This document shows positions 1-61,225 of a stretch of DNA of 64,000 nucleotides, piece after piece. Position numbers and translations under genes: made by a program. The notes under the pieces are model-generated. The model saw only the letters and a program-made list of their open reading frames with translations. It had not been told where the DNA came from and did no database searches. This DNA is from Lama glama (taxonomy: Eukaryota), in the NCBI GenBank assembly GCA_028534125.1, contig CM052816.1:21640001-21704000 (forward strand), given 5' to 3'. Numbering within the stretch: position 1 is the stretch's first letter; each line of letters starts with the position of its first letter.

Positions 1-2304
1 TCAGCTAAGTGTTTCATTTGTAGGCCTAATTTTTAATTAAGTTCTTAGGCAAGCACATTAGGAGAAGACTTCTGCCACATCTCCCACTTCCCTCTCATGT
101 GTGAGAAGAGCCATAGGACTTCATGCCCTGGGTGCATCCTTGTGGGTGTTGTGATTCATATCTTCCTGTTGTTGTTAAGACATCTGCCACTGCTTCCTGC
201 ACATCAGAGCCAGTGTTAGGACTCTCATGGCCCTTATTGAGGACAATGGCCTGCTTGGTTGCTGATTCCAAACCCTGGACCAAGGAGCTGAGAAGAGTGG
301 ACAGGACCTGTGCCCCTCTTGCTCTGGTGACTGGCTTCCCGGCTGTACCCTCTGTACCCTTTCTCACATGCAGCCTGAGAAGACAACAGCTTCATGCTTG
401 GACTAGCTTCTCTGCCACAACCCTGGCTTCATCTTAACTGACCTTTTGTCATGTGGTAGTTGACGACTGAGGACTGAATGCTGCAACTCCTAGTGAAAGG
501 GCTTTTATGGTCAGAGCTCTTCTGGAAGAGCTGGGCCACAGCTACCAGGAGGCTAAGACAGCGTTGTGGTTTGGTTTCCTTCTGTAGGAACTATCTTGGC
601 ATTTTCTTTGCCACTGAGTGGTATTGAAAGCTTTGATCCTGCGTATTCTGGGGACAGGAACCTGGGTTTCAGTACCTGTCTCTAAATGTTCATTTTACAT
701 TCCACACAGTGTGACATATGCCTAGGCACCAGCAATAGCCTCCTTTGCAGGGCCCCAAAGGGAGTGTTACAGGCTTCTGGAAGGGAACTAGTTCTTTTTC
801 GGCCTGTCAACATTCTTTCATCTCTAGTTGATGTGTTTGCTATAGATCATTCGGAAGAAAGAGCAATTGTGGCTTTCTTGTGAATTGGATGAGGGCCTAT
901 CTGATAGTGGAGGAGATGCTACAGTGCCAGAATTCTCTAAGATTGAAGACACTCCTGACTCAGTGTCTCAGCCTTCACCAAAAAAGTGATTTCTAACCAC
1001 TTTTTACCCTTCACTTTGACCTCAGTATCATAAATACCCATGTCTTTCAGCGACTGATTCTTCTACTTTTGTAATAAGAAATCTAAAAATGCAAATGAAT
1101 ACCTCCTTCCAGGAATCAGTTTTGATGTACAGTTGCTTAAAAATATGAGTCTGGAGCCTGGAGTTTGCTCATGTGGCGATCCTGATTGCTGCAAATCCAG
1201 AGGTTCCCATGACACTTGCACTATTTGGGGCTGTATTAAATAGCATAGGTACAAATCGCTTCAGCACCATGATTAATGTGAGTCCCCAAACTGTTAAAAG
1301 TTGAGCCAGCTATAACAATGCATCTTCTTTCATTACCCCCAGTAGAGAAAGTTTAAGCAGTCCATCCAGTAAGTGGGAGCGTTGGAAGGCTCTGCAGCCA
1401 TAATAGTCTCCAGCTACAAGCAGTGATCAAATTTCCCTAAGTGCATTGGCACAGTAATCACAGCCATGTTTAAAACTTTCTTAAAGTTCTCAGCTAGAGA
1501 GGGTCCAAAGAAAAGGCATTTGTAATATCACTTCATCAACTGCACTAGCATGTCTCTCCTTAGATGCATCTCCAGCACTAGAGCCATCTTCTGAGCCAGG
1601 CCTCCTGGCACTGTTGACAGGATTTCCAAGTATTTTTGGTGTGGGCCTCATGAAGATCGAAGCAGTGTATGCCAGCATATTTTCATCCACTGATTCTTCG
1701 TGTCACAATTTTTATTTTTGTGGACACTGAAAACCATGCTGCTGAAGTTCTCCACTGCATCATGTTTGATAAAGTTTTGTTTTGTTTTTTTACTCCAACA
1801 GGAATATTTTCTCTCTTGTAAAGTCCACCCTCCCTTTATCTCCCCTTCACGTCCATACGTCTCCATTATTGCTAGCTTTGCAGCATCTCTCACCTGACTG
1901 TTGGAATTGCCGAAAAGGATATACAAAACCAATTTTTTGAGTACTAATAGCCGAACCCCAAAGATGTTTATGGTTTCATTAAGACACAGAGCCATGTGTT
2001 ACCATTCGGTACATCAGCTTCCGTGTCAGATTCTGTACTTCATCTTGAACTTCGTCTCCCATTCCAGCTACTAAAGCTAAAATAACCATTGTGATTTAGG
2101 ACTTGTGCAGATAAGCTGTTCAGAAAGGCACTTATAATTTCTAATCCTGTTGGTGACACCTGAACTGGCTCAGGCCCTACTTCAGGTCCAGACTCCCATT
2201 GGGAGCCCTGGGGTGGAGCAGCAGTTTTGGCTACCCTGCAGCCAGCCGTCCATGCCCTGCTGCTTCATTTGGATGCAGAAGTACTTCATGCAGTAGACCA
2301 CTGT
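1..2304 (-). pseudogene. CLASP2: Processed pseudogene (retrocopy) of CLASP2, antisense in a P4HA2 intron; continues beyond window start; 5'UTR remnant may extend to ~2400
   Basis: Colinear minus-strand peptides with stops and frameshifts and no introns: MKYFCIQMKQQGMDGWLQ (~MEYFCAQVQQKDVGGRLQ), GLEIISAF, LCLNETINIFG..LFGNSNSQVRDAA, GNPVNSARRPGS..ASAVDE, ANALREI*SLLVAG, PNSASVMGTSG, SNCTSKLIPGRRYSFAFLDFLLQ, SDRPSSNSQES, NTGSDVQEAVAD, EDVAEV. Compared with CLASP2 recalled from memory. Confidence 0.92.
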
Positions 2305-2816
2305 GGGATGGGGTGGGATATGCTTGTCCAGTTCAGCCTGACCAGGAAGAGCTTCTAGGGACAGTAATGGAGGTGGCAGGAGCACTGCCAGGCACTAAGT
2401 AGCTCCCAAGTTAGCATTTAAAAAATTAATCCCAAATCTGAGTTTGTTTCTTTCTGCTGATTACCTTCTCACTATTTTCCAAACAACCAGGGCCCACGCC
2501 AAGGTCTGCTTCAAGAAGGGCTCCCTCTGCCACTGTACAGGTGTCCCCACAGGGCTGGAGCTTCTCCCCAGTGGCCATCTGCAGCTTGTTCTGTTTGGGA
2601 AACCACATTTGTGCTGCAGCCTTCCTCTTGGACAGCTGTAGACCTGTTTGCAGCATTTGCTCTGCCCGTGTTGGCAGGGCATAATTATCCTCCACTTCAG
2701 ACAGGCTGCTCTTGGGGGTTCTAGTTGTTACCTGGGGAGATGGTATCCCTGGGAGAGGGGCTGCTTCAGGATGGTTCATGCTGCTGACAAAATCCAACAT
2801 TGTTATTTCCCACCAG

Positions 2817-2870
2817 GTTGCTAATTATGGAATGGGAGGACAGTACGAGCCACATTTTGACTTCTCCAGG
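2817..2870 (+). CDS. P4HA2: P4HA2 coding exon (54 nt) VANYGMGGQYEPHFDFSR, with the Fe-binding H-x-D motif
   Basis: cag|GTTGCT...TCCAGG|gtaagg; peptide typical of the collagen prolyl 4-hydroxylase alpha catalytic domain. Confidence 0.97.
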
Positions 2871-5190: not shown

Positions 5191-5259
5191 ATGAGTGATG
5201 TAGAAGCTGGTGGTGCCACTGTCTTTCCTGATCTGGGGGCTGCAATTTGGCCTAAGAAG
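5191..5259 (+). CDS. P4HA2: P4HA2 coding exon (69 nt) MSDVEAGGATVFPDLGAAIWPKK
   Basis: ttcccag|ATGAGT...AAGAAG|gtaggt. Confidence 0.97.
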
Positions 5260-5633: not shown

Positions 5634-5730
5634 GGCACAGCTGTATTCTGGTACAACCTCCTGCGGAGTGGAGAAGGTGACTACCGAACGAGACATGCTG
5701 CCTGTCCCGTGCTTGTGGGCTGCAAGTGGG
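5634..5730 (+). CDS. P4HA2: P4HA2 coding exon (97 nt) GTAVFWYNLLRSGEGDYRTRHAACPVLVGCKW, with the distal Fe-binding His and the 2-oxoglutarate-binding Lys
   Basis: atccag|GGCACA...TGGG|gtgagt; ends in phase 1. Confidence 0.97.
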
Positions 5731-7785: not shown

Positions 7786-7856
7786 TCTCCAATAAGTGGT
7801 TCCATGAACGAGGGCAGGAGTTCTTGAGGCCGTGTGGATCAACAGAAGTTGACTGA
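7786..7856 (+). CDS. P4HA2: P4HA2 last coding exon (V)SNKWFHERGQEFLRPCGSTEVD*
   Basis: ctctctgttcacag|TCTCCAAT...GACTGA; phase 1 fits the previous exon; C-terminus STEVD matches P4HA2. Confidence 0.97.
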
Positions 7857-37533: not shown

Positions 37534-38033
37534 NNNNNNNNNNNNNNNNNNNNNNNNNNNNNNNNNNNNNNNNNNNNNNNNNNNNNNNNNNNNNNNNNNN
37601 NNNNNNNNNNNNNNNNNNNNNNNNNNNNNNNNNNNNNNNNNNNNNNNNNNNNNNNNNNNNNNNNNNNNNNNNNNNNNNNNNNNNNNNNNNNNNNNNNNNN
37701 NNNNNNNNNNNNNNNNNNNNNNNNNNNNNNNNNNNNNNNNNNNNNNNNNNNNNNNNNNNNNNNNNNNNNNNNNNNNNNNNNNNNNNNNNNNNNNNNNNNN
37801 NNNNNNNNNNNNNNNNNNNNNNNNNNNNNNNNNNNNNNNNNNNNNNNNNNNNNNNNNNNNNNNNNNNNNNNNNNNNNNNNNNNNNNNNNNNNNNNNNNNN
37901 NNNNNNNNNNNNNNNNNNNNNNNNNNNNNNNNNNNNNNNNNNNNNNNNNNNNNNNNNNNNNNNNNNNNNNNNNNNNNNNNNNNNNNNNNNNNNNNNNNNN
38001 NNNNNNNNNNNNNNNNNNNNNNNNNNNNNNNNN
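37534..38033. other. Assembly gap, exactly 500 N
   Basis: Run of N. Confidence 1.
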
Positions 38034-59926: not shown

Positions 59927-60001
59927 GGGGAGAGTATAGCTCAGTGATAGCGTGCATGCTTAGCATGCCCGAGGTCCTGGGTTCAATCCCTATTACCTCC
60001 A
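59927..60001 (+). mobile_element. tRNA-Ala(AGC)-derived SINE (camelid vic-1-like)
   Basis: ggggagagtatagctcagtgatagcgtgcatgcttagcatgcccgaggtcctgggttcaatccctattacctcca; A and B boxes; flanked by the ttaaaaga direct repeat. Confidence 0.8.
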
Positions 60002-60898
60002 TTTAAAAGACCACTTGTGGTACACTCAGGCTTGCTTACTGAAAGACCCAGAATATATATGAACAGAAAACTCCAAGACTAAGCTAGGTAAGGATAGATT
60101 GCCCCAAAAAACTGGCAACAAGAATTTTCAAGGCCTAGAATATACATACTAGGACACTGTGATGTGACTTACCGAAGTTCAGAATTATTGCTGTATTTTG
60201 TAGTGTGAGCTGTTTCTGGTGCTAACATAGGAGGGATTGTAAAAGGAAATGAGTGCTCTTCTGGACTCTTCTGACCTGATGGACATGTCATTCTATGCTG
60301 GCTGCCAAGACCATAAACTTGGGAGAATGCCTTTGTGAGAAAGCAAGAACCCCCCACATGCATCCTCATCTCATGAATATCCTTTGTACTCCGAATTATT
60401 AACTCCTTTAGGAATAAACCAAAATAAAACCAACCATAAAGAGAGTCCAAGTTAGTATTATCACTCATCTTTGAATCTAGACTTTATCTCACTTCCATAA
60501 ATCCCATAAATATGGGATCCATTTCTAGACTCTTTATTCTGAGTTACTGATTTGTTTATTCATTATTGTAGCAGTACCACACTGTGTTAATTCCTGTTGC
60601 TTTATAAAATATTTTGAAATCATATAGGGCAAATCTTCCACCATGGTTCTCCTTCAGAATTATCTTGAATATTTTTCCCTATGAATTTTAGATCCTATCA
60701 GGATCCATGAGAAGTTCTGTAAAGGGATTTTTATTTTGTTAGAATTAGGGTAGAATTTATAAACTAGTTGGAGGAGAACTGACTTTTGTGGAATTTGGGA
60801 AAGCTGCTAAGTTTTTGTTTGTTGGTCTTATATCTGGCTACGTTGTTCAACTCCTGGGTTTTCTGTGTAAAGCCTCACATCATCAAGAGGTAATATAG

Positions 60899-60989: not shown

Positions 60990-61225
60990 GATAATATAGT
61001 GATTAAGAGCATGAAGTCTGAAGTCAGACTGCTTGGGTTTAAATTCTATCTGCCGTTTACCAGCCAAGTACCTCAGTATCTCTGTTATTTAGTCTCTTCA
61101 TCTGTAAACATGGGTTTAATACTAATACCTACCTCCCAAGATGGTTGTTAGGATTAAATGAGTTAAGATACATACAGCATTTAATATAAAGCAAGCAGCA
61201 ATAACAATCACCATCATCATTATTT
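60990..61225 (+). mobile_element. MIR SINE
   Basis: agtgattaagagcatgaagtctgaagtcagactgcttgggtttaaat..tcatctgtaaacatggg..ggattaaatgag. Confidence 0.85.

Follow-up and report, generated by a model that had tools for sequence, protein, structure and literature searches.

An apparent processed pseudogene of CLASP2, old and probably inside an intron of P4HA2, in Lama glama

The P4HA2 locus and the position of the copy

The analysis covered a window of 64,000 nucleotides of Lama glama DNA, by which the whole stretch is meant. Between 0.95 and 0.97 of the words of the CLASP2-like copy described below are present in 6 rows from 5 other studies (8 rows that were possible sources having been left out), and this sequence can therefore be regarded as real genomic DNA. 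The exons of P4HA2 that could be recognized all lie on the plus strand:

2817..2870, plus strand: P4HA2 exon closest to base 1, VANYGMGGQYEPHFDFSR, with an AG acceptor and a GT donor (translation and splice sites)
5191..5259, plus strand: P4HA2 exon, 23/23 residues identical to P4HA2 in PDB 7ZSC (E=5e-10)
5634..5730, plus strand: P4HA2 exon, 32/32 residues identical to P4HA2 in PDB 7ZSC (E=5.5e-19)
7786..7856, plus strand: last coding P4HA2 exon, with the stop codon (translation and acceptor)

The exon at 2817..2870 also gave a weak match to the 2OG-Fe(II) oxygenase family of Pfam (E=0.044, below the cut-off). Since this exon is preceded by an AG acceptor and encodes mid-protein sequence, intronic DNA is to be expected ahead of it. 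It is in this DNA, on the opposite strand and with its start 528 nt from the exon, that a CLASP2-like sequence was found. The initial annotation had placed this sequence antisense in a P4HA2 intron. The antisense orientation follows directly from the plus-strand exons that begin at 2817, and the intron placement, with the upstream exon lying outside the window, is highly probable from the gene structure. The host strand of 1-2816 contains one ATTAAA and zero AATAAA. Between 2871 and 5190 (plus strand) two similar intact exons were observed, about 50 nt apart and ending in NRLATFLNY and NRVATFLNY, respectively, which we take to be the known mutually exclusive exons of P4HA2.

Extent and parentage of the CLASP2-like copy

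The following features of the minus strand belong, or may belong, to the copy. The names TOG1, TOG2 and TOG3 are used for the regions and for the corresponding PDB entries.

52..2289, minus strand: coding-derived body of the apparent CLASP2 processed pseudogene, aa ~6-875, comprising TOG1, linker, TOG2, the S/R-rich region and the start of TOG3 (tblastn and frameshift-aware alignments)
6..46, minus strand: probable continuation of the copy to the window edge, aa 890-895 and 902-907 (score reached by 3/300 shuffles)
1648..1998, minus strand: longest stop-free piece, TOG1-derived, LFGNSNSQVRDAA (50.7 bits to CLASP2 5NR4, 31.6 bits to CLASP1 6MQ5)
1313..1702, minus strand: stretch derived from linker and TOG2, lacking blocks of 5, 10 and 3 codons, which distant unnamed copies lack as well (alignments)
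2290..2422, minus strand: candidate decayed 5' UTR and 5' junction, a T-run and then AAAT at about 2422-2412 (CpG o/e 0.0, TpG o/e 1.75)

The minus strand of 1-2400 carries the short ORFs and motifs that had been described, as seen in the ORF listing and in the sequence. The proposal that these represent colinear, intron-free pieces of one protein, starting near MKYFC at 2289, was confirmed: the window from 2289 down to 6 is colinear with CLASP2 residues ~6-907. In a tblastn search the CLASP2 protein of Bos indicus (P0108) gave five colinear matches, which together span 2289-857 (E=2.6e-54), and further matches at 494-152 (E=4.5e-10). The frameshift-aware alignment with the best reference, CLASP2 protein P0061, which extends from 2289 (MKYFC, matching MEYF) to 52, contains 376 identities in 732 aligned residues and reaches a score of 981, as compared to 37-56 for shuffled proteins (n=10) and 41 for the plus strand. 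It includes 16 stops, 20 frameshifts, 123 deleted residues and 3 inserted codons. With the camel protein P0111 as the reference, 369 of 731 residues were identical, with 18 stops and 21 frameshifts, so that the reading frame is disabled by 16-18 stops and 20-21 frameshifts, depending on the reference.

Two additional pieces of 6 residues each, likewise colinear, were identified in the final 51 bases (aa 890-895 at 46-29 and aa 902-907 at 23-6). As their score was equalled by just 3 of 300 shuffles, the copy probably extends beyond base 1 of the window, in line with what had been suggested earlier. In that case ~600 further residues' worth of sequence, corresponding to about 1.5 kb at the degree of retention seen here, the 3' UTR, the poly(A) and the 3' target-site duplication would lie beyond the edge.

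One frame of the copy, read through its stops (P0001), served as the query for the protein search, in which 2692 proteins were found among 7999 candidates. Among the 120 matches listed of these 2692, CLASP2 is the first name in 115, the UniRef label 'CLASP1' occurs in 4, and 1 has no name; all 120 score 739-981 in the frameshift-aware alignment to the window. The proteins P0002, P0019, P0074 and P0120 bear the UniRef label 'CLIP-associating protein 1', yet have CLASP2-like scores; the one label that was checked, that of P0002, is attached to a protein 97.8% identical to camel CLASP2. A comparison of 12 ORFs with Pfam yielded nothing above the cut-off. In the PDB search the TOG1 and TOG2 pieces of the copy matched solved CLASP2 domains, and four non-CLASP matches (E 0.05-1.6) were treated as chance.

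The earlier preference for CLASP2 over CLASP1 as the closest relative was clearly upheld. Six CLASP2 proteins scored 848-981 against the window, whereas the full-length or long CLASP1 proteins scored 404-426 (13/13). At the paralog-diagnostic sites of the CLASP2-anchored alignment the copy has the CLASP2 state 118 times and the CLASP1 state 17 times (97 neither), and in the CLASP1-anchored alignment the counts are 57 and 29 (109 neither). With a second CLASP1 reference they became 118/16/93 and 48/33/97, respectively. A second PDB comparison gave 61.8 bits for CLASP2 versus 47.9 bits for CLASP1, and in general CLASP1 (PDB 6MQ5, 4K92) fits the copy far worse than CLASP2 does. To judge from these comparisons of sequence, the parent is CLASP2 and not CLASP1. 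The copy shares with CLASP2 (PDB 5NR4, 3WOY) the residues ~6-907 of the long form, in order, but differs from it in having no usable frame. The SxIP region, which had been listed together with TOG1 and TOG2 among the recognizable parts, does align as these two do, but both SxIP motifs themselves are destroyed in the copy.

The match begins at the Met of MEYF, which is residue 6 in most isoforms and residue 1 in P0061, and spans TOG1. Because TOG1 lies upstream of the K|DKSF junction and is included in the copy, the template was a long CLASP2 isoform, in agreement with the initial annotation. The copy may be 5'-complete, as had been described, in that its coding match begins at this Met; neither the first five codons of most CLASP2 isoforms nor the 5' UTR could be matched. 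The top mean scores (950.7 and 952.5, versus 856.7-938.4) belonged to the isoform groups that include the EDTSD segment and to those that lack the 21-residue exon. Given the deletions in the copy, we are unsure of any detail beyond 'long form' that such group means may suggest.

A probable processed origin, decay and age

The retrocopy nature of the sequence was proposed on account of its lack of introns, and this is well supported by the alignments. Across ~870 residues there is no insertion of more than 1 codon, only 3 codons are inserted in all, and gaps that would indicate retained introns are absent. The positions of CLASP2 introns could be approximated from three unnamed ORFs (P0159, P0175 and P0179), in which a CLASP2 match of 85-93% comes to an abrupt end: before DKSF in 3/3 ORFs, after KVGG in 2/3 and after VQ in 1/3. 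These break points, which come from unnamed ORFs and from no annotated gene, would correspond to exon-intron edges of CLASP2. Each of the three putative intron sites is spanned in the copy by consecutive codons, the sites after KVGG and after VQ within 1313..1702 and the site before DKSF at about 1716. By all appearances it is an intronless copy of CLASP2 mRNA, i.e. a processed pseudogene (retrocopy).

A decayed duplicate made at the DNA level, or the relic of a third CLASP gene, could be proposed instead, in that the poly(A) and the target-site duplication were not seen (the 3' end being outside the window) and in that heavy deletion could hide a former exon structure. Such an origin is nevertheless very improbable in view of the rarity of inserted codons, the three putative intron sites that are crossed without insertion, the affinity to CLASP2, which is clear and not intermediate between the paralogs, and the absence of a codon-position bias from a coding past.

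The processed pseudogene of CLASP2 has much in common with the LINE-1-mediated mammalian retrocopies, the hallmarks of which are described in the accessible part of PMC8071448: it is an intronless copy of a spliced mRNA, located away from its parent and with its coding frame destroyed. It differs from them in being unusually decayed, with about 0.39 substitutions per site and about 14% of the residues deleted. A candidate LINE-1 endonuclease site at about 2422-2412 is TT/AAAT-like, with 1 mismatch to TTAAAA, which is estimated to lie within chance.

At non-degenerate sites the copy mismatches CLASP2 at 268 of 881 positions, corresponding to a JC distance of 0.39 and a K2P distance of 0.40 (0.38-0.41 with four references); the distances derive from protein-to-DNA alignments, in which misalignment inflates the values. 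The parent protein, for comparison, has hardly changed, as five other mammals share 94-98% of its residues with camel. Mismatches affect 114/390 first codon positions (29.2%) and 148/479 second positions (30.9%), and this equal alteration of both positions is as expected without coding constraint. The earlier characterization as heavily diverged and old could thus be retained: by these measures the copy is old, died early and underwent a neutral-looking decay.

Support for a great age also comes from unnamed ORFs. The searches yielded 43 distinct proteins, 23 of which were aligned to the window; the other 20, consisting of 18 genuine CLASP proteins or fragments and 2 apparent mosaics, were left out. 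Two of the 23 aligned ORFs are near-identical to the window (JC 0-0.03) and 21 are distant from it (JC 0.16-0.38). Among the distant ones, 18 are nearer to the window than CLASP2 over the same span and 3 are equally far or farther. The 10- and 3-codon deletions of the copy are common to 5/5 aligned unnamed ORFs, and the 5-codon deletion is found in 4/4 unnamed ORFs that span it, as compared to 0/2 of the CLASP controls in both cases; four of the five deletion-sharing ORFs form one close group and are not independent. As the distant ORFs come without flanks, and also without a species, it is on the shared lesions that their probable orthology to the copy rests. The common deletions suggest that one copy first decayed and was then passed on to lineages that are now far apart.

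The distances between the window and the ORFs are sums of two branches. If each branch is given an equal share, some 0.2 substitutions per site are left for the time before the deepest split. Neutral distances between mammalian orders are near 0.3, and the two values together point to an insertion before the orders separated. It thus seems that a single insertion took place before the placental orders split, probably in the eutherian stem, with the reservation that rates vary between lineages. Since the insertion was inherited, the long CLASP2 isoform would have existed as a spliced mRNA in the germline or embryo of an early mammal. At 22 sites with lineage-specific CLASP2 residues the copy has the primate/rodent state once, the camel state 5 times and neither state or a gap 16 times, a weak form of dating, as most of the 22 sites represent rodent-specific changes. 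At the camel-only sites 111, 228 and 720 the copy has the non-camel residue or is one base away from it. In a metagenome scan for related loci with alignment A1, 0 of 242 pattern matches were confirmed.

Two types of irregular ORF were encountered in the course of these comparisons. The unnamed ORFs P0157 and P0172 consist for one half of genuine CLASP2 exon and intron and for the other half of pseudogene, with the switch inside the shared RKPGSAGGPK. They are probably assembly chimeras that arose via this shared word, and possibly products of gene conversion. In P0153, the segment that corresponds to window 1828-1523 (ASAFK.P.PK.PGNPVNS.RKPGSAGGPK) is far closer to CLASP2 than it is in the window, and this points either to a host lineage that evolves slowly or to a conversion event of local extent.

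Function and known counterparts

The reading that accounts best for these data, and that we hold with high confidence, is that of an inert processed pseudogene, derived from a retrotransposed long-isoform CLASP2 mRNA and now constituting dead intronic DNA in P4HA2. The LINE-1 machinery would most likely have reverse-transcribed the spliced mRNA of a long, TOG1-containing CLASP2 isoform and have inserted the cDNA, oriented opposite to the gene, in a P4HA2 intron. Without a lasting coding role, the copy would have decayed neutrally and lost several blocks before the carrier lineages separated; at present it would be passenger DNA that is transcribed within the P4HA2 intron and spliced out. The copy appears to have no function. 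The shares of its words in RNA data (0.46-0.50 in X16-X18, 0.11-0.14 in X19-X20 and 0.50 in X15, which is RNA by guess) were considered as evidence of transcription and set aside, because they carry no information on strand and because equal values would be obtained from the intron of the host, from carry-over of DNA or from a related species. Transcription of the copy independently of P4HA2 is conceivable.

A position on the opposite strand within a gene is common among retrocopies, which lessens the significance of the antisense orientation. According to section 3.4.3 of PMC7290577, 2139 human retrocopies overlap genes, 1301 of them on the opposite strand, and nearly 40% of retrocopies have an intronic location as stated in the accessible part of PMC8071448. 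The CLASP2 copy resembles the nested opposite-strand retrocopies of PMC7290577 in being intronic and antisense to its host, and it is apparently older than most of those catalogued. Neither CLASP2 nor P4HA2 was found in the searchable supplement of PMC7290577.

A literature search, to which most subscription papers were out of reach, yielded no description of a CLASP2 retrocopy in P4HA2. In human, a processed pseudogene of ~4 kb with CLASP2 as its parent presumably lies on the opposite strand in a P4HA2 intron, namely ENSG00000224431 (AC063976.7/.2). The human counterpart may therefore already be annotated as a GENCODE pseudogene, and the earlier suggestion that the copy is easily missed by annotation finds no support. 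The identifier ENSG00000224431 is given as a GENCODE pseudogene entry that is testis-dynamic in Table S8 of PMC9641868, without coordinates or a parent in the part seen, and AC063976.2 occurs, without position or parent, in one table of PMC8284828 in the portion available. Other AC063976 genes are the subject of PMC11017616, PMC10543573, PMC8548124 and PMC4140826, as far as their accessible parts go. The identifier or gene is absent from the supplements of PMC2584115, PMC11017616 and PMC4140826 to the extent that these are open, and the accessible part of PMC4772013 contains nothing on this locus.

One alternative to an inert copy is that the dead copy was co-opted in cis, either through a transcript that is read from the strand of the copy and so is antisense to P4HA2, or as a regulatory element, with an effect on the level of P4HA2 or on which of the mutually exclusive exons, located about 1 kb downstream, is used. 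The retention of the copy in several distant lineages is compatible with such a role, as is the existence of a class of cis-antisense retrocopies, described in section 3.4.3 of PMC7290577. If the human identification given above is correct, the developmental dynamics of ENSG00000224431 in testis (R-squared 0.82; PMC9641868 Table S8, as far as available) and its increase in head-and-neck tumours (1.68) beside that of P4HA2 (1.28; PMC12519442, in part) would also be in line with it. However, the label of dynamic is given to as many as 2741 human pseudogenes (18%) in PMC9641868, and a co-movement with P4HA2 in tumours is expected from intronic reads of the host. CpG is moreover depleted throughout (o/e 0.0-0.36), so that the portion of the copy inside the window lacks a promoter of the island type, and no conserved core was observed. 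The distances to the distant copies (JC 0.16-0.38) resemble the neutral values between orders mentioned before. We consider a co-option in cis improbable, and are slightly more sceptical still of a specific form, in which the retrocopy was dead before the placental orders diverged and was retained because it turned into a cis-element or a regulated antisense RNA, perhaps active in testis, by which P4HA2 levels or the use of one or the other of the mutually exclusive exons for the catalytic domain would be adjusted.

A second alternative concerns CLASP2 itself. It had been pointed out that the P4HA2 pre-mRNA would carry more than 2 kb of degenerate anti-CLASP2 sequence, and as a matter of geometry this is right. 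The antisense orientation and the length of the stretch (more than 2.2 kb) could suggest that the intronic RNA pairs in trans with CLASP2 mRNA, as a trans-NAT or a source of endo-siRNA, and candidates for retrocopy-derived trans-NATs are described in the accessible part of PMC7290577. The capacity for pairing, however, is small: mismatches amount to about 30% at non-degenerate sites, the copy is interrupted by about 20 frameshifts and numerous deletions, and the longest possible perfect duplexes are two runs of 9 and 8 codons, with 2/178 runs reaching 7; these are upper bounds, synonymous sites being unreadable. Nothing indicates, either, that the copy was kept similar to its parent. Introns, once excised, are usually nuclear and short-lived. 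A role in trans is accordingly most doubtful.

The inert processed pseudogene, as it is best regarded, is an ordinary and very old one, a fossil marker that bears no sign of function. Its value is modest: for the deep phylogeny of mammals it offers a clean marker, in terms of presence or absence and of shared deletions, and it also offers a long clock of neutral decay. It opens no standing question, and would gain greater weight only if the copy regulated P4HA2, of which there is no sign here.

The remainder of the window contains several repeats. Rfam and ARAGORN found nothing on the whole window, and accordingly did not call a SINE derived from a tRNA and containing a pol III B box at 59928-60005 (plus strand), which we take to be of a camelid type. 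What is presumably a MIR-like element follows at about 61000-61200. The AT-rich block at 22000-56100 is dense in old repeat pieces, presumably LINE-1, that are mostly 64-81% identical to each other; it includes an ORF2-like frame at 25539-25078 (minus strand) and, at 37534-38033, an assembly gap of 500 N.
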